Shown: in pieces, positions 3,694 through 35,606 of the stretch
How positions within the stretch are numbered: position 1 is the first letter of the stretch
Layout: each line of letters starts with the position of its first letter
Source: Candidatus Woesearchaeota archaeon
GTDB lineage: Archaea; Nanobdellota; Nanobdellia; Woesearchaeales; ARS49
Assembly (NCBI GenBank): GCA_038891615.1
Contig: JAWADY010000001.1
Span: forward strand, 170,952-234,951
Reading direction: 5' to 3'
Length of the DNA: 64,000 nucleotides
The notes under the pieces: model-generated
Databases searched by the model: none
What the model saw: the letters and a program-made list of their open reading frames with translations, nothing else
What the model was told of the DNA's origin: nothing
Made by a program: the position numbers and the translations under genes

Positions 3694-4722
3694 TTACGAA
3701 GCAATTACCCCTTTAAGGATTAGCTCAACAATTACAAAAAGGACATAAAGCATTAATAAAGCTATTCCCAAGTGCAAATCAAGCTTCCTTGCAGAGTGAA
3801 TGAATGCTGTAAAAACAATCGCGACAGCCATCATAAATACTGCACTTGCAAGAAAAAGAACAAGATTCCCAATGATTGGATAGATGAGTGCTGTTACTCC
3901 AAGGACAGCTGTTGAATTCATCACAACAGAACCAAGCAAATCGCCCAGCGCCATTTCAGGATGATGCTTCAGAACGGCAGTTGTTTCAAAAATTAGCTCT
4001 GGAAAGGATGTTCCAATAGCTATGAAAAAAAGGCCTACTAGTATTGTAGGAATCCGAAGGTCAAGCGCCAATGCCGAACCATATCGTACAACATATTCTG
4101 CACTATAAAAAAGGAGAAACAATCCGAAAATAAAAACAAGGGGAGAAAGAACTACCTCCCATTTTGGAAAGCTGTTTTCAATTCTCCCATGCATCTTTGG
4201 TCTTTGCTTTACAAGCGTAGAAAGGTAAAAGAGAAAAACAGCTACTAATATAAAACCATCAAACCGTGAAAGCTCGCCATCAATAAACATGAGAACTACA
4301 GGGAGTGCAGAAATCAGCACCATCCAAAACGCCTGTTTTTTTATTTGAGCACCTTCAGCACCCTTTAGTGCAATTTTTCTGCCAATCAAAGAAATTATTC
4401 CGCCAACGAACGCAATATCAGCTATGTTTGAACCAATAACATTTCCAAGGGAAAGAGCTGGTTTCGCTGCAAGCGCAGAGGCAATGCCAACAAAAAGCTC
4501 TGGCAATGATGTTGAAAAAGCCATCAAAATAAAAGCAGTAACAAACTCGCTAAGCCTAAGAAAGGACGCCATCCTTGAGACTGCACGGACAAGCAGAGAG
4601 CCGGCAAACACTAGCACAAGACAAAAAATTATGAATACAAGAAGATTCTGCAACAAGGCCATTTTAAAAACAAACAAATAATAGTTTTTATAGTTTTCTA
4701 TGAACGGTATCAAAATTCGCAA
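3694..4722 (-). CDS. Ca2+/Na+ antiporter, CaCA family (YrbG-like)
   Basis: 342 aa, about 10 TM segments. Two alpha-repeat signatures: AFSTSLPELFVG and GTSFPELIFET (the GTSLPEL consensus). Confidence 0.7.
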   Translation of the reverse strand: MRILIPFIENYKNYYLFVFKMALLQNLLVFIIFCLVLVFAGSLLVRAVSRMASFLRLSEFVTAFILMAFSTSLPELFVGIASALAAKPALSLGNVIGSNIADIAFVGGIISLIGRKIALKGAEGAQIKKQAFWMVLISALPVVLMFIDGELSRFDGFILVAVFLFYLSTLVKQRPKMHGRIENSFPKWEVVLSPLVFIFGLFLLFYSAEYVVRYGSALALDLRIPTILVGLFFIAIGTSFPELIFETTAVLKHHPEMALGDLLGSVVMNSTAVLGVTALIYPIIGNLVLFLASAVFMMAVAIVFTAFIHSARKLDLHLGIALLMLYVLFVIVELILKGVIAS

Positions 4723-4736
4723 AAAATATAAACTTA

Positions 4737-5708
4737 TTGCATTTTAATAAAAAAATGGCGAGCGTTCATATAGAAAAAACTGCAACTAACTATGTGCTTA
4801 CGCTGGTTAATACTTTTGAATGTCTTGAGTCCTTAAAGAAAAAATATGAAATTGCGCAGAAGAACATTAGCGAACTAGAAAGGCTTGTTTTGCAACCATT
4901 TAAGGAAGCGTTGGTGAGAGATCTTCTAAAAGATAAGTCAGTGGGTTGGATGGGTAGTGAAAAGAGGGTTAGCTGTATCAAAAAAAAGGTTTACGAGTAC
5001 AGCGATTGGTATGCAGAGGTTAAAATCGTAAAACAGCAGAAAAAACATGCCTATAAACAATACATTGATGAATTTCTGAGATATACCAGCAATGTTGAGC
5101 ATGATGTTAGGATTGGAAACAGGCTACCTTATGCAGAGCTTGAGAAAGAAAGCGTTTACATATTGGCTAAGCATTTGAACACGAAGCTTCAGTGGTATTT
5201 TGACCGAGAGACAGAAAAAGAAAATAAGGCAAGCATAAAGTTTGGTTCAAAAAAGCCATTGAATATCAGTGAGATAACTTTGTTCCCATGTGAAGATTAT
5301 TCAAAATTAAACGAAAGGAATTTTGAAATTGCGGTAAAGGCTGATTATTTTGTTGGGCGAGAGAAAGAGGTCGTCAAACAATATGAAGAAAAGGTCAAAG
5401 AAAGAATTGCAGAGAGTGCTGCAATAAAACCTGAAGAAGGGAAATTTCCTCAAAAATCAGTAGCAATTGAAAGTGAAGGATACGAGGTTGAAATCGAACC
5501 AAGAACGAGCGTAAGTTATGCAGATGTTTTTAATTCGGTAAAAAATGATTTACTTGAGATATCAAAAGGGAATTACGAAGGTAGAGAAGCTTATTCCCCT
5601 AGAAAGTTGAAAGGAAAGCATTTTGTGGAAGCTGAAAAAACGATAATACATGTTAATATGCTTTGCAATAATTGGGGAGTAAAGAAAATTGCTTACTATT
5701 TCTACTGA
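4737..5708 (+). CDS. hypothetical cytoplasmic protein, Lys/Glu-rich
   Basis: 323-aa ORF with an AT-rich upstream region. An alternative start sits at 4755 (MASVHIEK). No recognisable motifs. Confidence 0.45.
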   Translation: MHFNKKMASVHIEKTATNYVLTLVNTFECLESLKKKYEIAQKNISELERLVLQPFKEALVRDLLKDKSVGWMGSEKRVSCIKKKVYEYSDWYAEVKIVKQQKKHAYKQYIDEFLRYTSNVEHDVRIGNRLPYAELEKESVYILAKHLNTKLQWYFDRETEKENKASIKFGSKKPLNISEITLFPCEDYSKLNERNFEIAVKADYFVGREKEVVKQYEEKVKERIAESAAIKPEEGKFPQKSVAIESEGYEVEIEPRTSVSYADVFNSVKNDLLEISKGNYEGREAYSPRKLKGKHFVEAEKTIIHVNMLCNNWGVKKIAYYFY

Positions 5709-5741
5709 AATAATTTTTGCAAAAATGATACAGTCATTACG

Positions 5742-6338
5742 GTGCAATCAAACAAAACATTTATTAATATTAATCAGATGATGCCAATTATGGAAACAGG
5801 GTACAAAGTTTGTGATGCAATGACAGAGCAGCCTGTCACCATAAGTCCCGATGCAACTCTGCAGCAGTGCGCCTTGCTAATGTCAAAGGAACATGTCGGA
5901 GCCCTGCTCGTAAAAGAAGGAGAGAAGATTGTTGGCATATTGACAGAACGGGACATTGTCAGAAAGGCTGTTGCCAAAAATGTAAGTCCGTCTTCAAAAA
6001 AGGCTCGCGACATAATGGAAACCGCACTAAAAACAATAAGCCCAGAAAAGGATATTCTTGAAGCGTTAAAAATAATGCGTGACTATAACATAAGGCATCT
6101 TCCGGTTATTGACAGAGGAAAATTTCTTGGAGTTATAACACTAAAAGACATATTGAAAATACATCCAGAACTATTTGAGATAATGGTTGAGAAAATAGAA
6201 ATAAGGGAGGCAGAGCGCAAGCTCGCAATCAAAGGAAAAGTGCGTGAAGGGATTTGTCAGAATTGCGGAAAGTATTCTGATGATTTAAGGTATGTTGAAG
6301 GGCAGATGATGTGCCCTGACTGCAGGGAAGAATGGTAG
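5742..6338 (+). CDS. CBS-pair domain protein with C-terminal CxxC..CxxC zinc ribbon
   Basis: 198 aa. Two CBS-like units (VGALLVKEGEKIVGILTERDIV and HLPVIDRGKFLGVITLKDIL). C-terminal CQNCGK...CPDCREEW. Confidence 0.65.
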   Translation: MQSNKTFININQMMPIMETGYKVCDAMTEQPVTISPDATLQQCALLMSKEHVGALLVKEGEKIVGILTERDIVRKAVAKNVSPSSKKARDIMETALKTISPEKDILEALKIMRDYNIRHLPVIDRGKFLGVITLKDILKIHPELFEIMVEKIEIREAERKLAIKGKVREGICQNCGKYSDDLRYVEGQMMCPDCREEW

Positions 6339-6388
6339 CCGAATGAGACTTGTGCTCACACCTTTTCTTAAAACAATTTAAGCAAAAA

Positions 6389-6679
6389 ATGCAACAAAAA
6401 GAAAAAAGCATAGGACTGCGCATATTAATAAGAGGGAAAGTTCAAGGGGTATTTTTCAGAGACTTTGTGAAAAGGAGCGCTGACGCTCTAGGGCTAACAG
6501 GCTGGGTGCGGAATGTTTCAGATGGTTCTGTGGAAGTTTTTGCAGAAGGAGAGAGAAGCAAACTCCTAGACCTTCTAGAAAAATGCAAAAGAGGACCTCA
6601 ATTTGCCGTTGTAGAAGCTATTGAAACAGAATGGTTCGAAGCAAAAAAGAAGGACAAAGGATTTAAAATAATTTACTAA
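6389..6679 (+). CDS. acyP: acylphosphatase
   Basis: Signatures GKVQGVFFR and GLTGWVRN, about 96 aa from ATG 6389. The ORF track begins upstream at 6350. Confidence 0.8.
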   Translation: MQQKEKSIGLRILIRGKVQGVFFRDFVKRSADALGLTGWVRNVSDGSVEVFAEGERSKLLDLLEKCKRGPQFAVVEAIETEWFEAKKKDKGFKIIY

Positions 6680-7119
6680 AACTTAGGCGGATTGCGGGAA
6701 AGGTCTGTGATATCGCTCTCGTTTTCTTTTCCCTTTCTTCTAGATAGAAGATAGGCATAAAAGCAGTTAAGAAAACTATATAAAGAAAAAGCAAAAGAAA
6801 CGCCTGCTATTGTTGATTTCTTTTCAATATCTTTAAAACTAAGAACCATTACTGGATTACTCCTAAGATAGCTGAGCTCATTTACTTTTTCAATATAGAG
6901 CATTTTCACTTTGCCTTCTAAAGCAGCCAAGTCGTACAAAGTCACCTTTTTTAATTCGTCCTCAAGAAATTTAATCCGTGTTGCGGCCTTCACTGCAGGA
7001 CTCTGATACGTTAGGTCATAGAGCGCGTTGAATCCAATCGCTCCAAACCCGATTCCACAAGTCAAAAAAATTTCGGCAGCAAACTTTTTTGCAATTTCAA
7101 CCAAACCCATCCATCCCAC
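6676..7119 (-). CDS. hypothetical protein
   Basis: 147-aa ORF with no competing ORF and no recognisable motif. Its 3' end overlaps acyP on the opposite strand. Confidence 0.3.
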   Translation of the reverse strand: MGWMGLVEIAKKFAAEIFLTCGIGFGAIGFNALYDLTYQSPAVKAATRIKFLEDELKKVTLYDLAALEGKVKMLYIEKVNELSYLRSNPVMVLSFKDIEKKSTIAGVSFAFSLYSFLNCFYAYLLSRRKGKENESDITDLSRNPPKF

Positions 7120-16322: not shown

Positions 16323-18392
16323 ATGATAATTAATTCAATAAATCTCAGAAACATCAGGAGTTATGTTAATGAGCGCATAAATTTTCCAGAAGGTAGTATC
16401 CTTCTTTCTGGAGATGTTGGAGCAGGCAAAACAACAATTCTTCTAGCAATCGAGTTTGCACTTTTTGGAATTCTTCGTGGAGAGGTTTCCGGTAGCTCTC
16501 TTCTCAGGAATGGTACGGAGAGTGGTTATGTTGAGCTTAGCCTTGAGCTTGGTGGAAAGCCAATCGTAATAAAGAGAACGCTAAGGCGTTCAAAAGGCAG
16601 CGTTGAGCAAGAATCTGGTGAAATATCAATCGATGGAATGCGACAGGTACTAACGGCTACAGAGCTGAAGTCAAGAATTTTGTCGCTAATGGGATACCCC
16701 TTAGAGCTTGCAAGCAAGAGCAAGTCACTAATATACAGATACACAGTCTACACCCCTCAAGATGAAATGAAAAGAATACTTTTTGAGGACAAAGAAAGTA
16801 GGCTAGACATATTAAGAAGGGTTTTCTTTATTGACAAATATAGAAGGATAAAAGACAACACCACGATTTTTATAAGGCAACTACGCGAGCAACTACGCGA
16901 ACTTGAGGGCGAGACTGCGGACTTGGATTATAAAACAAAAAGGTTGAATGAAAAGAAGGATGAGCTTGCTGCAATTGAGATAAAACTGGTTAATGCATCA
17001 TCTATCCTAAAGACTGCAAAAGAGTTTGTTGAAGTCGTCAGGAAGAAGTGCGCCGAGGCTGAGGCTATCTTGATAAAAGCGAACGAACTGAAAAGGAGCT
17101 TTGATGTTTTAAAAGCAGAGCTGGAGGGGGTGAATGAGCAAAAAGAAAGAACTCTTAAGGAGGCTGAGCTGCTAAAAAAACAAATCGGCGAGCTTGATGC
17201 GTTACTTGGAGAAGGGAGAAGTGAAGCGCATAAGGAAGTTATTTCAGAACTTATCTCTAAAAAAAACCAAGAGCTTGATAGGTGTGAAAAGGAGATTCTG
17301 ACCCAGAGGGAACATGTTGCATCGCTGAAAAACCAAAAAAGGCTTTCGGAAGATACAATATTAAAAATCTCAAAGCTAGAAAGTTGTCCTTTGTGTCTGC
17401 AAAAAGTTTCGGAAGAGCACAAGAAAAAAATAATGAGCAGAGAGGAAACAGCTCTATCAAAGCTGGAAAAAGAGCTGGAAGAGCATCTTAAAATGATTGA
17501 AAATCTTGAGAAACAAAAAAGAGAAATAAAAGCAGAACTTGAGGCATTGAAAAAGAAAGAAGAAGAAGCTTTTGCAATTAAGCTTAAAGCTGAAAGCCTT
17601 ATTGAAAAACGGCAACAGCTTTCTTCAAGACTTACTATTATTAAATCACTCGAAGAGCGCGCAAGGAATCTAAGCAAAAAAATATCCGAGAATGAAGTCG
17701 TGCTTAAAACCCTTCAAACAGCTAGAGAGGATTATGAAAAGGCCCGCAAAGAACTGGACTTTGCCTTGGAAAAAGAAAAATGGGCAGAAGTTGAGTATGG
17801 AAAACTTCTGAAAGAAAAGGAAAGCCTTGTTTATGTTGTAAAGGAACTTGAAGCTGAGGTCCAAAAAAAGCTAAATGCTAAAGCAAAAATCGAACAAACA
17901 AAGCAATTGATTTCTTGGCTTGGAGAAAACTTTATTTCAATGATTGAAGCAATGGAAAAGGCAGTGATGGCTCGTGTGCATTCGCAGTTTAACGAACTTT
18001 TTACAAGGTGGTTCAACCTTCTCGTTGATGATGAACTAATCGCAGCAAGACTTGATGAAGAATTCAGCCCAGTGCTCGAACAGAACGGCTATGAAACACC
18101 TGTAGAAAGCCTTAGCGGAGGTGAAAAGACCGCCTGCGCCCTCGCCTACAGGCTTGCCTTAAACAAGGTCATAAACGACCTTATACACGGAATCCAGACA
18201 AAAGATGTGATAATTCTAGACGAACCAACAGACGGTTTCAGCAACAATCAGCTTGACCGCATGCGTGATGTTCTAAACCAGTTAGGCTTAAGACAAATAA
18301 TCCTCGTTAGTCATGAAGAAAAGATAGAAAGCTTTGTAGAGCATGTCATTAAGATATCAAAGAATGAGCATGTGAGTCAGGTTTGTGTATAA
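16323..18392 (+). CDS. SMC-like ABC ATPase with zinc-hook (Rad50/SbcC family)
   Basis: Walker A GDVGAGKTTIL, long coiled coil, central CPLC hook motif, ABC signature LSGGEKT, Walker B IILDEPTDGF. 689 aa. Confidence 0.7.
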   Translation: MIINSINLRNIRSYVNERINFPEGSILLSGDVGAGKTTILLAIEFALFGILRGEVSGSSLLRNGTESGYVELSLELGGKPIVIKRTLRRSKGSVEQESGEISIDGMRQVLTATELKSRILSLMGYPLELASKSKSLIYRYTVYTPQDEMKRILFEDKESRLDILRRVFFIDKYRRIKDNTTIFIRQLREQLRELEGETADLDYKTKRLNEKKDELAAIEIKLVNASSILKTAKEFVEVVRKKCAEAEAILIKANELKRSFDVLKAELEGVNEQKERTLKEAELLKKQIGELDALLGEGRSEAHKEVISELISKKNQELDRCEKEILTQREHVASLKNQKRLSEDTILKISKLESCPLCLQKVSEEHKKKIMSREETALSKLEKELEEHLKMIENLEKQKREIKAELEALKKKEEEAFAIKLKAESLIEKRQQLSSRLTIIKSLEERARNLSKKISENEVVLKTLQTAREDYEKARKELDFALEKEKWAEVEYGKLLKEKESLVYVVKELEAEVQKKLNAKAKIEQTKQLISWLGENFISMIEAMEKAVMARVHSQFNELFTRWFNLLVDDELIAARLDEEFSPVLEQNGYETPVESLSGGEKTACALAYRLALNKVINDLIHGIQTKDVIILDEPTDGFSNNQLDRMRDVLNQLGLRQIILVSHEEKIESFVEHVIKISKNEHVSQVCV

Positions 18393-23813: not shown

Positions 23814-24245
23814 TCATGGCAGCTTACAGCCGCTTTTGGAAGCCAATTGAGCAAAGGTTTGCTCACCACTAACCCTGCTACCATCCCCAAACACCCAAGT
23901 TGGATAAGCCATTATTCCAGCTTTGGTACATTCTTTTGTCTGACCTCTTTCGTTAGGAATTGCGCACTCGACATAGTTAATATATTTCCAGCTCTCACCA
24001 AACATTGCTTTTTGGTTCTGGCAATGGGGGCACCAATAAGCGCCATACATTTTTACACCAGAATCTGTCAAGCATTTTGCAAAGATGTCAAGCGGTGACA
24101 TGCTTGTTTCGCCTACGACAGCTCCTCCAGTAGCAGTGCTTCTTGCACAACCAACAAGGATAAACGCAGCTAAAAGAGTAATAAAAACAAACACAAATAG
24201 GGTTGGATAAACACGATAAGTTCTTTTTTGAAGAGTTGATTCCAT
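23814..24245 (-). CDS. thioredoxin-fold thiol:disulfide oxidoreductase, membrane/lipid-anchored (CPHC active site)
   Basis: N-terminal TM/signal with lipobox-like LVGCARS. YGAYWCPHCQNQK is the thioredoxin-fold CxxC active site. Confidence 0.6.
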   Translation of the reverse strand: MESTLQKRTYRVYPTLFVFVFITLLAAFILVGCARSTATGGAVVGETSMSPLDIFAKCLTDSGVKMYGAYWCPHCQNQKAMFGESWKYINYVECAIPNERGQTKECTKAGIMAYPTWVFGDGSRVSGEQTFAQLASKSGCKLP

Positions 24246-24371: not shown

Positions 24372-24515
24372 TTAAACAAATTTTAAATTTAAATATATCA
24401 ATATTGCCACAAAGATTATGATGACAAACAAAATTCGCAAAGTTGGGTTGCGACTTTGAAATTTATCTTTCATTTGCTTTTCACTAACGCCTTTATGACC
24501 TGCACAACAATCCAT
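24372..24515 (-). CDS. small membrane protein (47 aa) with N-terminal MDCCAGHKG Cys-Cys-x-x-His motif; not in ORF track
   Basis: ATG preceded by AGGAGAGGTG. A single C-terminal TM helix (LRILFVIIIFVAILIYL). Confidence 0.3.
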   Translation of the reverse strand: MDCCAGHKGVSEKQMKDKFQSRNPTLRILFVIIIFVAILIYLNLKFV

Positions 24516-24656
24516 CTTGGCACCTCTCCTTCATTTTATTTAAAATTGTTCTTTGCGGACCTTATTGCTCAAAACAACATTCCAAAACCTCTTTAAGGGT
24601 TTTCTTAACTTTTTTCTTCAAACCACCAAGCTTTTTTGCAAGCTCTTCAATCACTT

Positions 24657-25088
24657 TTAGACCTCGCTTGAAACTTTTTCATCCAATGATTGAAGCAGCC
24701 AGAAAAGACCGTAAAGGTCAAAAGCTGCCCGCTCGAATTCATAAGCAGTGTCATTGGACTTTCCAATGTATTTTGTAGCAACTTCCATCAATCTCATTGT
24801 TGCTGCAAGCAGGTGCTTGCTAATGCACCATAGCTCACCCTCACGATTATGAACCAATTCACCGAGCATCTTTATCCTAAGTTTGCGGACAGCAGCGAGA
24901 ATTTCAAGGTAATGCTTTCTCTTTGTCTTCATTGCAGTAAAGGCAAGATGTTCTTCGAGGCTTATCAAGTTCATCACAGCTATTGAAAGATCTTGACGAT
25001 GAGTCAAGTCGGCCTTTTCGATATCGGCTTTCTTTTTCCTGCCTTGAGCCGAGGCTACTTTTGTCCTTTGTGTCATCCTTTGTATCAT
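24657..25088 (-). CDS. hypothetical cytoplasmic protein
   Basis: 143-aa ORF whose start overlaps the upstream gene stop by 4 nt (operon geometry). No recognisable motif. Confidence 0.4.
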   Translation of the reverse strand: MIQRMTQRTKVASAQGRKKKADIEKADLTHRQDLSIAVMNLISLEEHLAFTAMKTKRKHYLEILAAVRKLRIKMLGELVHNREGELWCISKHLLAATMRLMEVATKYIGKSNDTAYEFERAAFDLYGLFWLLQSLDEKVSSEV

Positions 25089-25603
25089 GCTGCCACCCCG
25101 AATAGACGTAAAGCTAAGACAGTTACGAGCAGCGCCGTTAGCATAAAGGCAAGCCCTTGCAACGGCATAAAATTCTTACCCCTGTTAAGTCTGCGCACAA
25201 CATGATGTAGCCAAAACGCACCACTGGTTGTTGCAGAACCAATGACAACCCCTGCTAGCAGGTAAGGCATTCCAAAGAGGGTTCCTGAAGAGTTGAAGAG
25301 CTTTGCAAAATGCAAGGTTAGTGTTGTCAAAAGAATGCTTAAAAGTGTCAAAATAGCTGACTGAAAAGGAATGTTCCAACCACGCTTTTTCATTGCATTG
25401 CTTGTCCAGAGCCCAATAGATACTGCAAGAGCTCCGATAAAAACGCCAAAAATGCTGTCATGTATTCCATAAAATCTTGCAGTAGTTACAGCGCCAACTG
25501 CTGCCACAGCACATAAAGGGCAATGTGCAAAAGCCGAAGGGACGGTTGCCAGGACCATGGATGCACCAATTATGGCAATCCTGCTTATGTTCATTCTCAG
25601 CAT
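25085..25603 (-). CDS. integral membrane protein with CPLC motif at start of first TM segment (possible thiol-redox/metal-handling membrane component)
   Basis: 172 aa. Signal/TM then AHCPLCAVAAVGAV. About 4-5 TM helices. Confidence 0.45.
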   Translation of the reverse strand: MLRMNISRIAIIGASMVLATVPSAFAHCPLCAVAAVGAVTTARFYGIHDSIFGVFIGALAVSIGLWTSNAMKKRGWNIPFQSAILTLLSILLTTLTLHFAKLFNSSGTLFGMPYLLAGVVIGSATTSGAFWLHHVVRRLNRGKNFMPLQGLAFMLTALLVTVLALRLFGVAA

Positions 25604-26175
25604 CCTCCTGTTCCTGAATCAGCTCCGCCTGGATAGAATACCTCCTTCCACTTGTTTATCTCAGCCTGTATTTGTTCACGAGTGTAGCCCTTTGTAACAA
25701 GCAACTTTGCAAGGCCGTAAAGTGCAACGTGATGACCACATTCACAGTTGTTGCTTGCCTGCAGTGTTGTAAAGCCGCAGCAAGGAAGTCTCACATCAAG
25801 CCCAACAATTTTCTTTGTCTGTTCAGAGTTCAACTTTATGCTTTTCGCATAATCAATAAGCTTAGCGTATCCTGCTGAATCATAGCTTATTCCATATTCT
25901 GACATCTCACCAGAACCTTGTGGAGAAGCATCATGCGATGTTGGCTCAATCCCACATCCACCAACACCCGTCGTAGCACCTGTTGAAACAGAAGCTGCGG
26001 AATTAGCCGATTTTCCATGATGGACTTCCATCATTTCTTCATATGAAGAATAACCGTGGTAAAGCCCAGAAGCGCTGCTTCCAGATTTGGTTGATTTGCT
26101 AATCCAGACAACTGTTCCAAAAAGCGCTATTGCTAGGAGAAGGACTATCAACACTCCAATTGTTTTGTTAGACAT
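25597..26175 (-). CDS. N-terminally anchored secreted Cys/His-rich protein
   Basis: 192 aa. TM anchor. Motifs GGCG, LPCCGF, NCECGHH and C-terminal GTGGC. Overlaps the downstream gene by 7 nt. Confidence 0.45.
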   Translation of the reverse strand: MSNKTIGVLIVLLLAIALFGTVVWISKSTKSGSSASGLYHGYSSYEEMMEVHHGKSANSAASVSTGATTGVGGCGIEPTSHDASPQGSGEMSEYGISYDSAGYAKLIDYAKSIKLNSEQTKKIVGLDVRLPCCGFTTLQASNNCECGHHVALYGLAKLLVTKGYTREQIQAEINKWKEVFYPGGADSGTGGC

Positions 26176-26302
26176 TTTTATTTTACATTACACCTCCGAG
26201 CTAAATAATCTGAAAAGGCAAAGGATTGAAACACCATATATTAATTTCGGTGAAACTAGTTTCAAAGGAATTTTAAGTTTCTAAGCTTTATAACAGGCAA
26301 AT

Positions 26303-26815
26303 TTAGAAGCTTTGGACTTGATGTTTCAATATAACAACATTGGTCATCCCCCTACGCCTTCGCTCGACAAGCCCCTTTGCCTCAAGCTTATCAAGAAGCC
26401 TAGTAATCTTCACCTTTGACATCTGCAGCTTGTCAACAAGTTCGTTCTGGAAGAGCATTCCATTCGAATCTTTAAGAAGGTTGTAAAGTGCCAGCTCATC
26501 GCCACCAAGCTCCTTTGCAGCATTTCTTGCACTTGCCGCAACAATCTCTTCAGGTCTCTTTTTAAAGAAGAGATACATCCCTATGCTAAAAAAAACAACA
26601 AGTACGAATGAACCTAGGTATTTAGGCAGCGAGAGTCTATTTATTTGTTCATAAGGGCATATTGTGTTAGGCTCATGAATGCAATTGCCCTGCTCATCAA
26701 ATCTTGCCTGCGAAAGAATAAAGGATTCTGTCTGCTTGACGTAGACCCCTCCAACTACCATAGTAATGAGTGAAAAAAGCATTATTACAAACCCCAACTG
26801 CTTATATCCTAGCAT
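26303..26815 (-). CDS. membrane-tethered winged-helix (MarR/TrmB-like) transcription regulator with extracytoplasmic Cys pair
   Basis: TM1, then a loop with CIHEPNTICPY, then TM2, then wHTH (LYNLLKDSNGMLFQNELVDKLQMSKVKITRLLDKLEAKGLVERRRRG). Confidence 0.55.
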   Translation of the reverse strand: MLGYKQLGFVIMLFSLITMVVGGVYVKQTESFILSQARFDEQGNCIHEPNTICPYEQINRLSLPKYLGSFVLVVFFSIGMYLFFKKRPEEIVAASARNAAKELGGDELALYNLLKDSNGMLFQNELVDKLQMSKVKITRLLDKLEAKGLVERRRRGMTNVVILKHQVQSF

Positions 26816-26858
26816 GCATTTATATTACGAATGACGATTTTTAAAGGTTGCTGTTCAT

Positions 26859-26876
26859 CCCTTTTTGCAAAAAGGG
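26859..26876. terminator. perfect 18-nt palindrome CCCTTTTTGCAAAAAGGG downstream of hsdR (minus strand), candidate terminator
   Basis: Direct reading. A T5 run lies within the stem on the transcribed strand. Confidence 0.3.
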
Positions 26877-27005
26877 GTGATCCTGATAAAGAAATCTAGG
26901 TTGAATTTTGCCCAAACTTGATGAGAACCTTTACGATATGTATACGGAACATCATAAAATCCTCTGTCAACAGACTTAATCCAAGCATCTATTTTTTGTG
27001 CATAT

Positions 27006-30000
27006 TCACACAGTAACTAAATTTCCAGCAACTAACTCTGCTTGTTTTAAAACGGTTTCTGTTGCTTTTTTTTCTTTATCAGGCGGATAGCCATATTTTC
27101 TCAGTATTTTCTTTACTTTGAGGCGCAACTCTGCTTGAACACTTTCTCTTTGTGTCCAGTCTATTGTAACACTTTTTCTTATCATTTGTGTTAGTTCGAG
27201 TGCTATTTTTCTTAAGGTTTCGTCACCAAGTATTTTAACTGCGCTATCATTGGCTTCAAGTGCATCATAAAATGCAAGTTCATCTTCACTCATTCCAAGC
27301 TCTTTTCCCCTGTTTTTTTCTTCTCTAACTTTTCGTGCTAACTCTATTAATTCTTCTACAGCTTGCGCAGCCTCTATAGTCCTATTTGTATATTTCTTTA
27401 TTGTTTTATCCAGCATCTCCATGAAAGATTTGCCTCGAACAAGGTTTCTTTTTGAAATTATTTTAATCTCATCATTCAATAATTTTTTAAGAGCTTCAAA
27501 CGCGAGGTTTTTCTGAGGCATATCTCTTACTTCAGCTAGAAAACGCTCTGATAAAATTGAAAGTTCTGGTTTTTTAATTCCAGCAGCCTCAAATATATCT
27601 ATAATTCTATCAGAGATTACTGCCTTTGAAATAATCTGTTTGATTGCTGTTTCATATTCTTCTATTACATCTTTTTTGGTTTCGAGTTTTTTTGACATTG
27701 TTAATTTTAATGTCTGAAAAAAGCCAACTTCTTCCTTAATCTTCATGGCTTTTTCATGAGGAAATGACAAAGATAATGCTTTTACAAGAGCTGTTGCTTC
27801 TTTTCTAAATCTTTCTTTTTTCCCTGGCTCTTTTAGTATGTATTCCATTGCATTTAGCATGAAAGGAAATTTTTCTTTTGGCGAAAGCTCGAAAAATTTC
27901 TTGTAATTAAAACCATAAAACATATCTTTAACTATCTCATATTTTTCTAACATTAATTTGACAGCCTCTTCTTGGTCCAATATTGGCTTTCCTTTACCGC
28001 CACTTAGTGTATAATCCATAAGTGCTTTTTTAAGTTCAGCTCCAACACCCATATAGTCGACAATCAGACCACCTTCCTTTCCAGGATAAACCCGATTCAC
28101 TCTTGCTATTGCCTGCATTAGAGTATGACCTTTTATTGGCTTATCAAGATACATTGTATGCAGAGATGGCGCATCGAACCCTGTCAAGAACATATCTCTT
28201 ACGATAAGGAGTTTGATTTCATGTTTTGGGTCCCTAAAATTATCCCCTATTCTCTTTCTTCTTTCTTTGTTTCTTATATGCTGCTGCCATTCTTTCGGGT
28301 CAGAAGCAGAGCCTGTTATTACGACTTTAATAAATCCTTTATCATCGTCATCATTATGCCACTCTGGCCTTAGTTTTATTATCTCGTTATAAAGGTCAAT
28401 GCATATTCTTCTCGACATACAAACAATCATTCCTTTTCCATCAAGGACAGAAAGCCTTTGCTCAAAATGATTTACAATGTCTTCTGCAATCCTTCTTATT
28501 CTTTTAGGAGCGCCCGCAACCTTTTCAAGACTTGCCCATTTACTTTTAAGTTTTTCTTTATGCTCTACCTCTTCGCCTTCTGTTACCTCCTCGAACTCTG
28601 GATCAATCTTTGGTCTTTCTTCTGGTTTTAACTCCAGCTTTGCTAATCTGCTTTCGTAAAATATTCCTACAGTAGCACCATCATTAATAGCTTGTTCAAT
28701 ATCATAAATATCAACATATTTTCCAAATACAGCAGGGGTTGATCTATCCTCTTTTTCTATTGGCGTTCCAGTAAAGCCAATGAATGACGCATTGGGCAAA
28801 GCATCTCTTAAGTACTTTGCATAACCATATGTTATAAGCACCTTATCTTCTTTTTTCAGTATTCTTGCAGGAAAACCATATTGGCTTCTATGAGCTTCAT
28901 CCGCTATTACAATAATATTGTCTCGCTCTGATAGAGTAGGATACTTTTCTCTATCATCTTTTGTTTCTGGAAAGAATTTTTGTATAGTAGTAAAAATAAT
29001 TCCGCCAGAAGCAACTTTAAGTAATTCCATCAGTTCTTTTCTTGTGCTTGCTTGAACTGGTTCTTGTCTTAATATGTCTTGACACTTGATAAAAGTTCCA
29101 AATAATTGGTCATCAAGGTCATTTCTGTCTGTAAGAACAACAATCGTAGGATTATCCAGTTGTCTAATAATTTTTCCAGCGTAAAAAATCATTGTCAAAC
29201 TTTTTCCAGAACCCTGAGTGTGCCACACAATACCTGCCTTTTTATTTGTCCTTCTTGCCTGCAAGGTTGATTCTACTGCTTTATTTGCAGCCCAATACTG
29301 GTGATATGCTGCTAATTTCTTTTTTGTTTCTTTATCTTTTTCAAAAACAATAAAGTTTCTTACGATATCTAAAAGCTTGTCTTTGTCAAGCATGCCTCTA
29401 AGCAAGATTTCTATTTCTGATAGCCCTTTCATCGGTTTTTCTCCTTCTATTGTTTTCCACTGCATAAACCTCTCTGGCTCAGAAGTAATCGTGCCTGCTC
29501 TTGCATCCATGCCATCGCTAATAACTAAAATTTCGTTATATTTGAACAAAGAAGGTATCTGTTCTTTATATGTTTGAAATTGATTATATGCTGTCCAGAT
29601 TGTTGCATCTTTATCTGCAGGGTTTTTTAACTCTATAACAACCAAAGGCAAGCCATTAACAAACAACACAATATCTGGCCTTCTTTCAGCATTGTTTTCT
29701 ATTACTGTAAACTGGTTGACTGCAAGAAAATCATTATTTTTTATATCTTCAAAATCGAACAAATTAATCAAAACGTGCCTTTCTTCACCTGCTTTTGCTA
29801 TAGGAATGCTGATACCATCTGTAAGCATCCTATGAAAGGTTTCATTGTCAACAAGCAACTTTTGGCTTCCTATTCTCAAGACTTCCTTTATAGCCTGCTC
29901 TCTCACCTCTTCTGAAACCTGCGGATTAATCCTTCTCAAAGCTTCTCTTAATCTATCAACAAGCACAACATCTTCATATCTCTGCCTTAGAGCATATTTT

Positions 30001-30110
30001 CCACCTGGTAAGTAATCCTCATTATTTCCCCTGATTACTTCATAGCCAAGGCTGCCCAAAACTGACAAAGCAAATTCTTCAACATCCGATTCATGGATTG
30101 CTTTTATCAT
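27006..30110 (-). CDS. hsdR: Type I restriction enzyme R subunit
   Basis: 1034 aa. Walker [17 protein letters not shown] box [11 protein letters not shown], HsdR N-terminal nuclease region. Confidence 0.9.
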
Positions 30111-30511
30111 TTCATCATCTTCTTAAATTTCAAGATTAAATTTTTCAATTGTTCCACAACAACCTCTGCTTCTTCCTTTTCAAGCTTTTTTCCATAATAA
30201 TTTACAGCGTTTCTAGTTTTTCTTAAATTATCAAAAATGTCAGCTTCCCTAGATAAATTTAATATTTCTTTTAGAAAAGCTGTGTAGCATTCATGATTAT
30301 AAATTTTGAATCCTTTTTTAATAGGCAATGCTTCTAAAATCTCCCTTAATGAATCGTACAATAAAGAAATTTTGCTTATAAGAAATTCATCAGCCAAAGA
30401 ATCAGTAGAGTTAAATTTTATTTCTGCTGTTTCTAATAAAGATATTATCATATTTTTATCCTCTTTCGTCTCTTTTGCAATTCTTTGTTTTAAGCATTCT
30501 CTCCAGTCCAT
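30107..30511 (-). CDS. HEPN-like protein, putative partner of the adjacent MNT
   Basis: 134 aa, all-alpha. [12 protein letters not shown] resembles the HEPN Rx4-6H box, but His appears replaced. Gene order and 2-nt spacing after the MNT gene are typical of MNT-HEPN modules. Confidence 0.45.
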
Positions 30512-30512
30512 C

Positions 30513-31025
30513 TTACCAGTTCCCTTTTATTTTGAAACCATTTAATATATTTTTAAGCAAATTTTCACTTTTTACATCTTCAATTCCTCTAAAAACAAAA
30601 ATCTGTATTCTCCTTTTTAGCAATTTTTCAAATTTCTCAAGATTAATTTCTTTTTTCGTTGGTGTAAAAATTGCAAGATCAATATCAGAATCAATCTTTG
30701 CTTCTCCTTTTGACAAAGAGCCAAAAAGATAAACTATTGGAGTTAATAAATTCTTTTCCAATTCTTTCAATAAGCCGGAATCTTCTAATATTTTTTTCCA
30801 ATAAATTCTTGATAACTCTACGAAAAGCTCAGAATCCTTATTTACAAAATAATAATTATAAATCTTCTCTTTTTCTTTTTTGAGCAAGCCTTCTTTATAC
30901 AAGTTTTCAAGAATCTTTGAAGCTGTCGGCGGGCTTATTTTTTGAATTCTTGCATACTCGCGAACATTAATCCGACTATAGCAATCTTCAAAGAAAGGCT
31001 TCAAAGTGTTAAATATTTCTAACAT
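30513..31025 (-). CDS. minimal nucleotidyltransferase (MNT) with N-terminal wHTH
   Basis: LFGSLSKGEAKIDSDIDLAIF is the GS..DxD pol-beta NTase motif. N-terminal REYARIQKISPPTASKILENL HTH-like segment. Confidence 0.65.
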   Translation of the reverse strand: MLEIFNTLKPFFEDCYSRINVREYARIQKISPPTASKILENLYKEGLLKKEKEKIYNYYFVNKDSELFVELSRIYWKKILEDSGLLKELEKNLLTPIVYLFGSLSKGEAKIDSDIDLAIFTPTKKEINLEKFEKLLKRRIQIFVFRGIEDVKSENLLKNILNGFKIKGNW

Positions 31026-31125
31026 ATGTTAAAAATAATTAACATTTCTATTTAAATCTTTTGAAAAATAAACCTCAAAATATATGTTAAAAATAATTAA
31101 CAAGTGTTAAAAAATATTAACATTT
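31026..31125. promoter_or_regulatory. three copies of a 20-nt palindromic operator-like repeat (ATGTTAA-N6-TTAACAT) upstream of and overlapping the MNT start codon
   Basis: Copies at 31026-31045, 31084-31103 and, degenerate, 31105-31125. The arms are exact reverse complements. Confidence 0.4.
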
Positions 31126-31130
31126 TTGTA

Positions 31131-32510
31131 TTAAGCAGATTTTTTAATCTCCCTTTCCATCTCTTTTATCATCTCAGCAGGCACTCTAATTTTGCCAGAC
31201 ATAAGTTTAGGAAGGAGAGAATCGCGAAGTTGGGAGAAGGTGAGGGATTCTTTTAAGTTATTATAAATTCGATTATAGATAATAGTTAATATATTTTCAA
31301 AAATATCTAAAACTTTTTTTTCAGGTATTAAAATTTTTGTTGATTTAATGTGATTTAAATTAATTATTGGCATAGTGCTTCCTGAAGATATTCTTTCCCA
31401 ATATTTCTCTTCGGATAGTCTTTTAAGGAAGATAAATAAATAGAATCTTCCTATTTTGTTTTCGTCTATTGTTATTTTTGCTAAACGACTTACTATTACA
31501 GCCTTATCATAAATATCAGTCATAATCCCTAGTAATCCTAGAGTCCCCGTTTTTGATATAATTATATCTCCTTTTTTAACAGAACTCCTTTTAACTTCTT
31601 GAAATTTTTTTTCTGATATAAAATGCTTAAATGGCTTATATAAAGGATAACCTTCCAAGTATTCCATTTCGATAATAGGAATTCCAGAATTTTGATATTC
31701 TGTTATTTTCATTTGTGTTCCGAATGGTCCATCGACTATTGAATTTTTCTCATCAGAGGATATATCTTCGATTTTCCCAACCCTCCACCCCTTAGGTATC
31801 TCTTTGCCGAGCTCTTCATTATAAACCATTTCTCCGCCAGAGCTTTTGTAAGGCTTACCCTCTTCATTCGGAAACTCAAAATCAACAAACCAGTGCTTGA
31901 AAATTGCCTGGCCAATTGCCTCAAGGGTTTTGTTCATTCGCTGGTTGAGTTCGATCTTATCATCAAATGCCGAAAGAACTTTAGCAATGGCGCGTTGCTC
32001 GGGGAGGGGCGGGATAGGAAGTTCTACATCCTTAAAAGTGTTTGTAGTTATGGTTTCAAAAACAGTTCCATAAGATACAGATCTAATCTTATTTATCGAG
32101 TTTTTAATCGAATAATAGAGGTATATTACATCATATTCTTTTTTTGGTTGTAAACCATAACATGTCTGATTAAAAGTCATCGGCTCTGGTAATAATGCTA
32201 TTGCACCGACAGTCCCTCTCGAAGTAATTACAATTGTATTTTTTGGATGGATTTTTGCATTGCTATTCTTTACTCCCTCTTCGGTTATTGTTCTTTCTGT
32301 AACTGTTACATATCGCGACTTAACATTTGCAATATCCCTTGCAGTTGCCCATTTAAATTTTCCATCCCAAAAATATTTAATTTCTGTTTTAGGGGTTCCC
32401 CCTAATGAAATATCGCATGTTTCACTAATAGATTTAACCTCCCAATCCTCAGGGATCATTCCGATTTCAGTTTGTTTGAATTTGGGTTTATTTTGGGTTT
32501 GAGGGTTCAT
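31131..32510 (-). CDS. hsdS: Type I restriction-modification specificity subunit
   Basis: Two target-recognition domains separated by conserved repeats. N-terminus MIPEDWEVKSISE is typical. The start was chosen at Met 32510 (MNPQTQ...). The ORF track extends to 32609. Confidence 0.8.
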   Translation of the reverse strand: MNPQTQNKPKFKQTEIGMIPEDWEVKSISETCDISLGGTPKTEIKYFWDGKFKWATARDIANVKSRYVTVTERTITEEGVKNSNAKIHPKNTIVITSRGTVGAIALLPEPMTFNQTCYGLQPKKEYDVIYLYYSIKNSINKIRSVSYGTVFETITTNTFKDVELPIPPLPEQRAIAKVLSAFDDKIELNQRMNKTLEAIGQAIFKHWFVDFEFPNEEGKPYKSSGGEMVYNEELGKEIPKGWRVGKIEDISSDEKNSIVDGPFGTQMKITEYQNSGIPIIEMEYLEGYPLYKPFKHFISEKKFQEVKRSSVKKGDIIISKTGTLGLLGIMTDIYDKAVIVSRLAKITIDENKIGRFYLFIFLKRLSEEKYWERISSGSTMPIINLNHIKSTKILIPEKKVLDIFENILTIIYNRIYNNLKESLTFSQLRDSLLPKLMSGKIRVPAEMIKEMEREIKKSA

Positions 32511-34095
32511 TTTTAACCACCATAAGTAATATACAGTTGTTATTGTTGTCTGGCACTTTGATAATCTCAATATTTGGCATTTTTGTCCTTTCTTGAAGTG
32601 ATTTAACAATTGTTTTTATTCTATCATCATCAAACTTAGAAATAGGAATAGGTTCAAATTGTTTTGTTTTTTCATTTGCACCAATGATATATACCTTTAT
32701 ATTAGACTCCTTCACCTTTTTACTAAGGTCGCTAGCAAAATAAGAAACTATTTCATCGTTACTACCTGAAAAAACATCCGAAGATTTCAATTCTAGTATT
32801 TCGTTTTCAGTATTTACAAAACTAATGTCAAAAGTTGAATTTTCAAATATCTTTTTAGATAGGCAATTTAAAAAATAACAAATAGGTTTATCTTCATTCT
32901 CTATGGCTAATAATTTTAAAATAGAGCCCAATAAAATACTATTAAATGAGTCTCTTATTTGCATTTTTTCATAATAATCTAAAAGTATTTTACTTAATTC
33001 TTTCTGTAGCTCGTTATAAATCTCCATGTTTTTTATTTTAATTGAGTTTGCGGATATTCTACAGCCTGCATGATAAACTCTGAAAGATTCGTTATTCAAT
33101 AATTTAGTTTTAATTTCTTCTAAGAAACTTCCCCGAATTTCTATGCTATTGTCTGAAAATAGTATTAGGAAGTTAGGATTTGTCTTTTTAATTATCACGT
33201 TGCCGTCTTGTTTTACAACATTATTCTTATCATCAAATATTTTTTCCTGATATGGAATGATAGAATTTTTTAACTTTATGTATTCTTCATTATAATAACT
33301 CAGATTATATCGTTTTGCTAAAAAATCTTGTACAAAATCATCATAATTTGTATATGGCTTCCTACCAACTTTGACTAATGACAACGGTATTCTTTCTATC
33401 GGAGCAGGTAAAATTATTTGTTTGTCCTTGACCTTAAACGCTTTTTCTTCTATAAACTTTTTCTCGAAATCGTCATCACTTAATTCTAAAGAAAAAGGAA
33501 CCCCGCTTACTTCACCACAAAATTTATTTTTACCGCCCAAATATTCAAATGCCACTTTTTGAGGTATACCTAACCAGTTAGCAAAGAACACAGAAGGATT
33601 AGTTTCATAAAAAATAACATCAATACTATCTTTCTCATTTTTAAAGTAAACAAATCTCAGGATATTATCTTTATCAAGCATTCTGTCTATAACCTCCCAT
33701 TTGGGTGTAATGGTTTCCTCACCAAAGAGGCTATGACAAAGTATGACAAATTCGGATGTGACTATACAAATCGCATATTTCTCTTCCATCCTCATTCTGG
33801 TGTTCATTTCGTCGCTAAAATCGTTAAGTAATTCTTTTGCGTCTCTGTCATCTATTAAAGGATAAGAGGAAATCAAATTTTTAATCCAAATTTGACAATT
33901 CTCCTTTAATTGAATTTCATCAAATTTTTTTCTTTTACCTAAATTTAATAACGAATTAACAACCTTCGTTATTTTATCTTTATCTACTTTTCTGGTTATT
34001 TTATCTTGGTTAATATCATTCTCAATTACTTTCTTTGAATATACGAATGTTGGCTCTCCCTTATTTTGATTTGTAATCATTATTACACACTCCAC
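32488..34095 (-). CDS. hypothetical 535-aa protein embedded between hsdM and hsdS (no recognisable motif; Asn/Lys/Ile-rich)
   Basis: Long ORF that overlaps hsdM by 13 nt and hsdS by about 23 nt, which implies translational coupling within the Type I R-M operon. No P-loop or nuclease motif seen. Confidence 0.5.
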
Positions 34096-35606
34096 CCCAG
34101 CATCTCCAAATTTCTTTTTATTTCTTCATCTAGCTTTTTGCTCTCTTCCATTTGCTGTTTGAGTTCTGCTGTGAGTTTTTTCATTTTTTCTTCAAAAACT
34201 TCTTCTGGCTCTTCTTGTTCTTCAAAGCCGACATAACGGCCTGGTGTTAAAATGAAATTATTTTTTTCAACTTCTTGTAATGAAGCAGATTTGCAAAAAC
34301 CAGGGATGTCTTTATATCCAAGTTTGTTTTCTCCTCTCCATGCATGGTAAGTATCGGCAATTTTCTTTATTTCATCATCAGTTAATTCTCTATGTCTTCT
34401 ATCAATCATTACGCCCATTTTTCTGGCATCGATAAACAGAATCTTTCCTCGTCTATCTTTGAACTTGTTATCTTTTTTATCACGAGCAATAAACCATAAA
34501 CAAGCTGGAATCATTGTGTTGTAGAACAGCTGCGATGGCAAAGCGACAATACAATCTACGAGGTCTGCTTTGATAATATTTTTTCTTATTTCTCCTTCGT
34601 TAGAAGTCATTGAGCTTAAAGAGCCGTTAGCAAGAACAAAACCAGCAATTCCTGTTGGTGATAAATGATGGATAAAATGCTGTACCCATGCAAAATTGGC
34701 ATTTCCTTTTGGTGGAACACCAAACTTCCACCTAACATCTTCTTGTAATAACTCGCCGCCCCAGTCTGAATCATTAAAAGGAGGATTTGCTAGGATAAAA
34801 TCAGCCTTCAAATCCTTGAATTGGTCGTCATGAAAAGAATCACCCCACTTAATGTTTGCGTCAATTCTTCTTATCGCAAGGTTCATTTTGCACAGACGCC
34901 ACGTTGTCTGGTTGCTTTCTTGACCATAAATTGAAATATCTCCAATCTTTCCACCATGAGCTTCAACAAATTTTTCTGATTGAACAAACATTCCTCCTGA
35001 ACCACAACAAGGGTCAAATATTCTTCCTTTGTATGGTTCAAGCATTTCAACAAGCAATTTTACAATGCATCTCGGTGTGTAGAACTGACCGCCTTTTTTG
35101 CCTTCTGCAGATGCAAATTGTCCAAGAAAATATTCGTAAACTCTTCCAAGAATGTCTTTGCTTTTGTTTTCTTTATCACCTAGCCCAATCGTGCCAATTA
35201 AATCTATTAGTTCTCCTAGGCGCTGCTTGCTTAATGCTGGCCTTGCATAAATCTTTGGGAGAACACCTTTTAATGAGGGATTATCCCTTTCGATATCCTC
35301 CATTGCATGGTCTATGAGTTCTCCAATTTCTGGCTTTTTTGCATTAGCCTGCAAATACTCCCATCGCGCTTCTTTTGGAACCCAGAAAACTCTTCTTGCA
35401 AGATATTCGTCAACATCTTCTGGATCAGCTTCTGGGTCTTTTTTTAATTCTTCATAAACTTCTTTAAAAGAGTCGGAAATGTATTTTAAGAATATTAAAC
35501 CTAAAACAACATGCTTGTATTCTGCAGCATCCATATTGCTTCTCAACTTGTCTGCAGCCTGCCAGAGCTTCTCTTCGAAACCTAAATTCGCACTATTAGT
35601 TTTCAT
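34083..35606 (-). CDS. hsdM: Type I restriction-modification N6-adenine DNA methyltransferase subunit
   Basis: Motif [15 protein letters not shown] and motif IV LANPPFN. HsdM N-terminal domain. 507 aa. Confidence 0.9.

Follow-up and report, generated by a model that had tools for sequence, protein, structure and literature searches.

In the membrane-bound regulators ToxR, TcpP and CadC, an extracytoplasmic sensor part carries periplasmic cysteines that serve as a switch. The ArsR/SmtB proteins, in turn, are small winged helix-turn-helix (wHTH) proteins that repress metal-efflux genes and whose release is triggered by thiophilic metals or by persulfide or disulfide chemistry, and metal- or oxidation-responsive members are likewise known in the MarR family, namely AdcR/ZitR, the MarR protein of E. 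coli (oxidized by Cu(II)) and OhrR. Among the copper regulators, CsoR possesses a Cys2His site for Cu(I), and CusS and CopS sense copper outside the cytoplasm. In the Archaea, ArnR and ArnR1 of Sulfolobus acidocaldarius are helix-turn-helix (HTH) regulators anchored by two transmembrane (TM) helices which bind to conserved boxes in their target promoters (PMC6396743). The present analysis concerns a gene for a membrane-tethered wHTH regulator of 170 aa at positions 26303-26815 on the reverse strand of a 64,000-nucleotide stretch (hereafter, the window) from Candidatus Woesearchaeota archaeon (GenBank assembly GCA_038891615.1, contig JAWADY010000001.1, positions 170,952 to 234,951), together with a palindromic DNA site behind it. 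Gene, site and the genes that follow form a conserved regulator-operator-regulon unit of DPANN archaea which is larger than one gene and represents a variant of both the membrane-bound one-component and the metal-responsive winged-helix regulators. The protein is very probably a membrane-anchored, DNA-binding regulator of the adjacent operon acting through a GAAACTAGTTTC operator; it is best read as a one-component transmembrane regulator whose presumed signal is either a thiophilic metal (probably copper) or the oxidation of thiols.

The limits of the coding sequence were taken from the open reading frame (ORF), from an alignment of 43 family members (alignment A1) and from a protein at NCBI with 100% identity, entered as 'MarR family transcriptional regulator [Candidatus Woesearchaeota archaeon]'. 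Its N-terminal half holds two hydrophobic segments (all features of the gene are on the reverse strand). The first, TM1 (residues ~6-26; 26738-26800), has a hydropathy peak of 2.26, lies inside helix 4-35 of the AlphaFold2 (AF2) model and contains an invariant G8; the second, TM2 (residues ~66-84; 26564-26620), peaks at 2.07, falls inside AF2 helix 54-84 and is followed by KKRPEE. Between the two hydropathy segments are 40 residues that include C45-I-H47-EPNTI-C53-P, and this net acidic, lysine/arginine-poor loop (residues 27-65; 26621-26737) accommodates the sole cysteines of the protein, C45 (26681-26683) and C53 (26657-26659), with H47 (26675-26677) between them. Beyond TM2 come a cytoplasmic linker helix (AF2 helix 88-101; 26513-26554), in which E90 is nearly invariant, and the wHTH DNA-binding domain (residues 105-163; 26327-26503).

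Topology was judged by the positive-inside rule, which is clear across 243 members of the family, and was applied to the 43 aligned members as well. The density of lysine and arginine is 0.053 in the loop versus 0.294 in the 15 residues after TM2, and mean net charge amounts to -1.9 for the loop and to about +2.3 for each of the N-terminus and the stretch following TM2. The loop is placed outside because of this charge distribution and because the conserved DNA target requires the wHTH to be cytoplasmic, with two TM segments between; the predicted order is thus N-terminus in, loop out and C-terminus in. A previous interpretation of the same DNA, made from its letters and referred to here as the sequence-only reading, had proposed just this series of an N-terminal TM segment, an outside Cys loop, a second TM segment and a cytoplasmic wHTH, and hydropathy, AF2 helices and charges bear it out. 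It had named as contrary outcomes a Cys pair in the cytoplasm and a structural model devoid of a wHTH fold; the charges position the pair outside, and the wHTH is present both in the AF2 model and by Foldseek comparison.

The C-terminal part of the regulator (residues 106-163) matches DUF7343, MarR_2 and MarR above the Pfam cut-offs, with DUF7343 (PF24034), a wHTH domain of archaea, scoring 40.4 bits against a gathering threshold of 27.6 over these residues and recognized in 43/43 aligned members. By its gathering score for PF01047/PF12802, therefore, the wHTH belongs to the MarR family, although the protein does not have the canonical MarR build, a soluble protein of ~140-160 aa with flanking helices for dimerization and the ligand pocket. 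Matches in Pfam and the PDB span only residues ~76-163, the protein stops 7 residues past the wing, and searches of both databases returned no family or structure covering residues 1-75. The earlier description 'MarR/TrmB-like' consequently holds for its first half, in that MarR models of Pfam are passed even though the MarR dimerization helices are absent; TrmB does not apply, as PF01978 scores 17.5 bits versus the 25.6 required and nothing follows the wHTH where a C-terminal sugar-binding domain would be. The NCBIfam model for ArsR-type regulators, HTH_metalloreg (NF033788), was likewise not reached (24.2 bits versus 55), and a Pfam search gave no Trans_reg_C match. The best Foldseek matches were to HlyU, SrnR, ArsR, SqrR and CzrA (probability 1.0; TM-score to target, 0.5-0.63).

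The family is widespread among the tiny-genome DPANN archaea and, as judged by the literature covered, was previously undescribed. A pattern scan of GTDB species representatives, one genome per species, located 372 family loci, and a profile search of 1.84 billion cluster representatives returned 838 clusters at E<=1e-10 (184 at E<=1e-30), with an end-to-end match in nearly every case. Full-length relatives of ~150-180 aa with 31-60% identity carry the labels Woese-, Pace-, Aenigmat-, Micr-, Iain-, Alti- and Undinarchaeota, and a few come from genomes labeled Theionarchaea or Methanobacteriota. Eight loci (L002, L003, L011, L013, L015, L016, L036, and L063) derive from species-representative metagenome-assembled genomes (binchicken assemblies) titled 'uncultured Methanosarcinales archaeon'; each is a locus of DPANN type with a regulator 33-55% identical to the Woesearchaeota protein, and their 'Methanosarcinales' label looks doubtful.

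Exactly two TM segments were counted in 243/245 members (as hydrophobic segments). In alignment A1, C53 is invariant and C45 is conserved in at least 90% of the sequences, while the recognition helix and wing are nearly unchanged (K134, V135, R139, L141, D142, E145, and E151-R-R-R-R-G-M-T-N159). The loop, 31-47 aa in length and lacking a recognizable domain, holds two or three Cys in 235/243 members (two in 195, three in 40), and no Cys occurs after TM2 in 238/243; across the alignment and these 243 members, a Cu(I) site could not be built in the cytoplasmic part, where neither Cys nor His is conserved. Among 187 unique members, the loop motifs are CxHx5C (76), CxHx3C (33), CxHx4C (11), CxCx4-6C (about 15) and Cx6C (29). 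The residue at +2 from the first Cys is thus His in 120/187 and Cys in about 15/187, an alternation that looks like that of a third metal ligand. Every subtype of the loop motif shows the same gene associations.

The DNA site that accompanies the gene is a perfect 12-bp palindrome, GAAACTAGTTTC, at 26252-26263 (neither strand), 40 nt past the regulator stop codon and 76 nt ahead of the next ATG. It is the sole exact match to GAAACYRGTTTC in the 64-kb window (1 observed vs 0.03 expected), and since a palindrome of 5-2-5 construction cannot make a useful hairpin, it is regarded as a protein site. It is followed, on the reverse strand, by the TATA hexamer of the downstream-operon promoter (TATATG; 26235-26240), which aligns with the family consensus TATAAG/TATATG, and by a third half-site, GTTTCA (26227-26232), which starts 19 nt after the palindrome and lies between the TATA box and the expected transcription start. 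Window site and family consensus agree exactly: GAAACTAGTTTCaccgaaattaaTATATGgTGTTTCA.

In a survey of 80 homologous loci, the palindrome was found in 64, nearly always once per 7-12 kb, whereas the window shuffle rate predicts less than a single match over the whole set. It occurs within 220 nt after the stop codon of the regulator gene in 44/76 loci, overlaps this stop codon in the form T-GA-AAC... in about 17, and in several of the remaining loci is represented at the equivalent place by versions with one or two mismatches. Alignment of 70 sites gave the consensus T-GAAACTAGTTTC-A, about 10 nt, TATAAG/TATATG, 1-2 nt and T-GTTTC-A. The spacing to the third half-site is exactly 19 nt in 54/70 sites, versus a background of 4%, and a TATA-like hexamer occupies the spacer of 50/62. 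In many loci the next ATG follows 38-41 nt after the palindrome, which is the geometry of a leaderless archaeal promoter; counted from that start, the approximate positions are -52 to -41 for the palindrome, -29 to -24 for the TATA box and -20 to -16 for the third half-site. The putative composite site of palindrome, TATA box and third GTTTC half-site is first recognized here. The features that define the family (two TM segments, the loop Cys pair, the C-terminal ERRRRGMTN wing and a GAAACYRGTTTC operator 3' of the gene) are all four present at the window locus. Second copies of the operator were seen in L008, L012, L033, L055, and L069, and sit before a DUF411 gene (L012), a second c2 paralog (L033; c2 is the first gene behind the operator in the window) or the regulator gene itself (L008), which hints at regulons of several promoters with occasional autoregulation.

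The association was also approached in reverse, by scanning metagenomes with the DNA motif alone (GAAACTAGTTTCA-N18-GTTTCA, 19 specified bases). At least 120 stretches matched, 80 loci were analyzed, and among the matches listed, to which the following counts apply, 71 were testable in having at least 550 nt upstream of the site. A family member on the same strand, ending no more than 1.2 kb upstream of the site, was recovered in 57/71, in 45 of which the regulator gene ends within 70 nt of it, and three further testable loci carry the regulator elsewhere. Of the eleven sites unaccompanied by a regulator, seven precede copA (4), DUF411 (2) or c2-c4-c9 (1), two stand before unclassified ORFs, and for the last two the locus contains no ORF downstream. 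Since a scan by motif alone recovers the regulator gene, regulator and operator are linked in either direction, with the site as the marker of a small regulon.

The content of this regulon is coherent. A CopA-like P1B ATPase is encoded in 56/76 loci (by clustering of neighbors); full-length examples pass the copper model TIGR01511 (628 and 599 bits vs 397) with lower scores for the Cd/Zn models, and the CPC, YN and MxxSS motifs were identified in about 30 of the 47 longer ATPase ORFs. Other recurrent neighbors encode DUF411/CopG (PF04214), DsbA-like thioredoxins, a VKOR-thioredoxin fusion, FtrD-like proteins, small Met/His-rich proteins and AhpC/TSA fused to a PCCG..CC domain; a PadR+TRASH gene also recurs as a separate, occasional neighbor. 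The gene right behind the operator in the 80 genome loci is copA in 19, c2 in 13, DsbA-like in 4 and DUF411 in 3, and in the 80 motif-derived loci (among the matches listed) it is copA in 29, c2 in 13 and DUF411 in 4. The c2-c4-c9 module occupies the position behind the operator instead of, or along with, copA or DUF411.

In the window, it is this module that follows the operator, with all genes on the reverse strand. The c2 gene (25597-26175; Shine-Dalgarno sequence GGAGGTG at 26191-26197) encodes a membrane-anchored, extracytoplasmic protein (alignment A2) with an N-terminal TM segment, the Met/His-rich stretch YEEMMEVHHG, an invariant CC...CxC(G)H and a C-terminal GGC. Its stop codon is overlapped by the start of c4 (25085-25603), a conserved neighbor encoding a multi-TM protein with an AHCPLC motif, and the c4 stop codon is overlapped by the start of c9 (24657-25088), another conserved neighbor whose product is a cytoplasmic helical protein with WCISKH. 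This stop-to-start arrangement is conserved in other genomes, and the regulator does stand, as had been claimed, at the head of a cluster of genes with Cys motifs. Neither Pfam, NCBIfam nor the PDB returned a match for c2, c4 or c9. A suspected kinship of c2 with the 'PCYCGC' family was dropped, as six members had no Pfam hit at E<=1 and a profile search of the PDB was likewise empty. Nearly all c2 proteins terminate in G-G-C (or GACG), and in L025, L031, L032, and L033, the c2 genes have as neighbors genes for small peptides (~67-120 aa, secreted or anchored) that carry EEMMQAHHG motifs and likewise end in GGC.

Directly after the c9 stop codon, in a different frame, is an ORF of 30 aa with a GTG start (24562-24654) that ends in ...KTLKEVLECCFEQ. 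The corresponding peptide is encoded by a separate small ORF in at least six loci, namely L030, L047, L002, L054, L015, and L007 and is fused to the C-terminus of c9 in L021, L067, and L075 (...DCCKE), a relation that could be one of gene fission and fusion, or possibly of recoding. A 47-aa ORF with an upstream Shine-Dalgarno sequence (24372-24515), beginning MDCCAGH and closing with a C-terminal TM segment, is a tentative gene; small ORFs starting with MDCC also occur in L007 and L027, and L001 has a small membrane protein with SCCEGH.... The last gene of this group (23814-24245) encodes a membrane-anchored thioredoxin-like protein with a CPHC motif (Thioredoxin, E 3e-4), the cluster of which includes the VKOR-thioredoxin fusion in L001.

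A mechanism consistent with these findings would begin with a dimer, formed via the TM hairpins and the linker helix, that docks on the palindrome T-GAAACTAGTTTC-A through its two C-terminal winged helices. A further subunit would contact the GTTTC half-site 19 nt downstream, such that the TFB-recognition element (BRE) and TATA box of the adjacent promoter are bracketed and kept off. Cys45, His47 and Cys53 of the loop would then bind a thiophilic metal, most likely Cu(I), or copper or oxidants would oxidize the loop to a disulfide; either change would shift the relative position of the two TM2-linker-wHTH arms, the winged helices would leave the operator and the operon would be expressed. In this genome the controlled operon would be c2-c4-c9, to which the small CC peptides and the thioredoxin-like gene may also belong; in most relatives it would comprise a CopA-type Cu(I) ATPase, DUF411/CopG or DsbA/VKOR-like genes. 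We infer four of these steps, namely binding of the operator by the regulator itself, repression in place of activation, sensing by the loop and copper as the signal; copper, or another thiophilic metal, is suggested as the signal because of the regulon content, the ligand-like loop and the absence of conserved cytoplasmic Cys or His. The idea of a one-component sensor with a disulfide or metal switch outside was already part of the sequence-only reading, and it gains strong comparative support from how well the Cys pair is conserved, from the presence of His or Cys at +2 and from the copper and thiol genes linked to the operator; sensing by the loop may be surmised from these. An operator at the 3' end of the regulator gene would also fit with co-translational insertion of the protein into the membrane beside its target. 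The full mechanism, combining an outside metal or thiol sensor with repression, is held to be slightly better supported than its negation. The broader proposition is offered more tentatively, as an attractive idea that may well prove wrong: a new class of metalloregulator in which an extracellular Cys2His loop coordinates Cu(I) or another thiophilic metal and the TM hairpin relays this to the winged helix, serving as the main regulator of copper and envelope-thiol stress in DPANN archaea, with a 3'-end operator that spares the search for the target.

Several observations weigh against a copper-sensing repressor. CopA exports cytoplasmic copper, and all the well-studied regulators of copA (CueR, CsoR, CopY and the archaeal CopR) sense it inside the cell. 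The copA gene of this genome, which encodes 817 aa with N-terminal HMA domains, is 36 kb away (window 62201-64000, reverse strand, continuing in L081 at 4514-6967), and, unlike in most loci of the family, no GAAACYRGTTTC operator was found within 600 nt upstream of it when the contig beyond the window was searched; as this copA has no operator of its own, the link to copper at the window locus comes through shared membership of the regulon only. A three-ligand site is not universal, in that 29/187 members have Cx6C with neither His nor Cys at +2, and archaeal activators, too, make use of the place where the palindrome is found, immediately before the BRE. Finally, the 80 loci of the operator survey were picked via the regulator protein, a selection bias that is reduced by the reciprocal scan over the matches listed. 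The same Cx6C members, having no third ligand, are among the reasons to consider a sensor of thiol redox or disulfide stress in place of a metal sensor, in which the C45-C53 dithiol/disulfide, set by the envelope oxidoreductases of the regulon, would control DNA binding. Periplasmic disulfides serve as switches in membrane-bound CadC and ToxR/TcpP, and genes for DsbA-like, VKOR-thioredoxin, AhpC/TSA and thioredoxin-like proteins recur behind the operator, including that at 23814-24245. However, the most frequent gene in that position is the copper ATPase, and the +2 alternation between His and Cys suggests a ligand rather than a disulfide partner, so that such a redox sensor is considered fairly unlikely. 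The metal and redox readings are, nonetheless, not mutually exclusive, as copper and disulfide stress overlap mechanistically.

Repression itself has a competitor in activation, whereby dimerization through metal- or disulfide-bridged loops would seat both winged helices at the palindrome, just ahead of the BRE, and in this way recruit TFB/TBP. The location of the palindrome directly upstream of BRE/TATA in leaderless loci, at about -52 to -41, suits this proposal, as it is the one used by archaeal Ptr2 and by TrmBL1 when activating. ArnR provides an example of a membrane-bound activator (PMC6396743). Against it, the strictly spaced third half-site between TATA box and start occupies a typical repressor position. 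The wHTH regulators of metal efflux (ArsR/SmtB, CopY and MarR-type) are, moreover, repressors, and activation is accordingly an unlikely, if still credible, alternative. It is distinctly improbable that the TM hairpin acts for anchoring and dimerization only, with the Cys pair forming a structural disulfide or metal site and the signal being perceived elsewhere (by c4, CopA or another membrane partner), or with a constitutive regulator that holds the genes of membrane proteins at the membrane. A loop of only 31-47 aa with no recognizable domain would be in keeping with this, as would the abutment of operator and regulator stop codon in many loci, which fits with action in cis near the site of insertion, and in the ArnR regulators the two TM segments mainly anchor while sensing is cytoplasmic (PMC6396743). 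Yet the cytoplasmic part here consists of a 20-aa linker and a bare wHTH without ligand pocket or conserved Cys/His, and the loop motif remains constant while the partner genes vary (copA, c2, DUF411, DsbA-like). Last to be considered is membership of the type I restriction-modification (R-M) or defense island, given that hsdR precedes the regulator gene on the same strand by 190 nt and that the wHTH part of the regulator weakly matches the Csa3/CasR models of PADLOC (E 1e-5 to 1e-3). The island noted beside the gene by the sequence-only reading is real, with hsdM (34083-35606), hsdS (31131-32609) and hsdR (27006-30110) all on the reverse strand, but this adjacency is accidental, because 0/80 related loci share such neighbors; the downstream genes and operator are conserved instead, the PADLOC matches cover the generic wHTH only, and the guanine-plus-cytosine (GC) content falls to 0.30 within the island and not at the regulator gene. 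Membership of a defense island is hardly believable and was rejected.

The regulator gene is predicted to have a promoter of its own, with a TATA-like box, TTTAAAAA, read from the sequence at 26837-26844 (reverse strand) and centered ~25 nt before the ATG, a spacing that would be consistent with leaderless geometry. Between this box and the hsdR stop codon is a near-perfect palindrome of 26 nt, TCACCCCTTTTTG/CAAAAAGGGATGA (26855-26880). It was entertained as an autoregulatory site and rejected, as it has no GTTTC half-site and a single look-alike in 1.5 Mb of related loci, found in L027 just before the operator of that locus; it is probably a hairpin that ends the hsdR transcript. The R-M stretch as a whole (27006-35606, reverse strand; GC 0.30) encodes HsdM, an unassigned ORF of 535 aa, HsdS and HsdR, and between hsdS and hsdR are a nucleotidyltransferase protein (30513-31025) and its 134-aa partner (30107-30511), which match the PADLOC candidate defense pair PDC-M05A/B. 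Elsewhere, the forward strand at 16323-18392 encodes a 689-aa SbcC/Rad50-like ATPase (AAA_23, SbcC Walker B); the ORF that comes after it, of 485 aa, has no family.

The DPANN archaea, tiny in genome size and almost without cultured representatives, are nearly unexplored as regards gene regulation; here, a regulator family emerges from sequence alone across many DPANN lineages, together with an operator and promoter that are sharply delimited and with a coherent set of regulated genes for copper export and for thiol or metal proteins of the envelope. No published description of the family or its operator was found in the part of the literature covered on DUF7343, COG2512, the operator sequence and copper regulation in DPANN archaea. 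Should the loop be a sensor, the protein would constitute the smallest known transmembrane signaling device that ends in DNA binding, and the sixth or seventh independent solution to the sensing of copper. The unannotated families c2, c4 and c9 and the small CC peptides gain a probable role in metal or thiol stress, and a 170-aa protein with a 45-bp DNA site makes a compact test system.

Compared with described regulators, the wHTH is MarR-like (PF01047/PF12802) in both sequence and structure, but the N- and C-terminal helices that provide MarR proteins with their dimer interface and ligand pocket are missing, a two-TM hairpin with an outside Cys/His loop is added and cysteines are present only outside the cell. 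With the ArsR/SmtB proteins (CzrA, CadC of pI258, SmtB, SqrR, and HlyU), the likeness is at the level of fold only; these are soluble, with metal sites on the cytoplasmic helices alpha3/alpha5, whereas the regulator has no cytoplasmic Cys/His site. Like ToxR, TcpP and CadC, it is a membrane-tethered wHTH protein placed on promoter DNA without a kinase, a resemblance of analogy and not homology. In those proteins, an OmpR-type wHTH at the N-terminus is followed by a single TM segment and then, at the C-terminus, by a folded periplasmic domain; the regulator reverses this order, with two TM segments and a 40-aa loop first and a MarR-like wHTH last, and hence is not of the ToxR/CadC type. Nor is it of the ArnR type. 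In ArnR, an N-terminal HTH is followed by cytoplasmic HAMP-like and sensor domains and by C-terminal TM segments, whereas in the regulator the TM segments are N-terminal and a HAMP/sensor region is absent; ArnR, moreover, activates archaellum genes on starvation and, unlike the family described here, has neither an outside Cys loop nor a link to metals. The copper regulators CopR (Lrp-type HTH + TRASH), CsoR, CopY, CueR and CusRS/CopRS have the same targets, CopA-type ATPases and envelope copper proteins. In none of the known regulators of copA, however, do an external sensor and a DNA-binding domain share one membrane protein, and none is related in sequence to this family.

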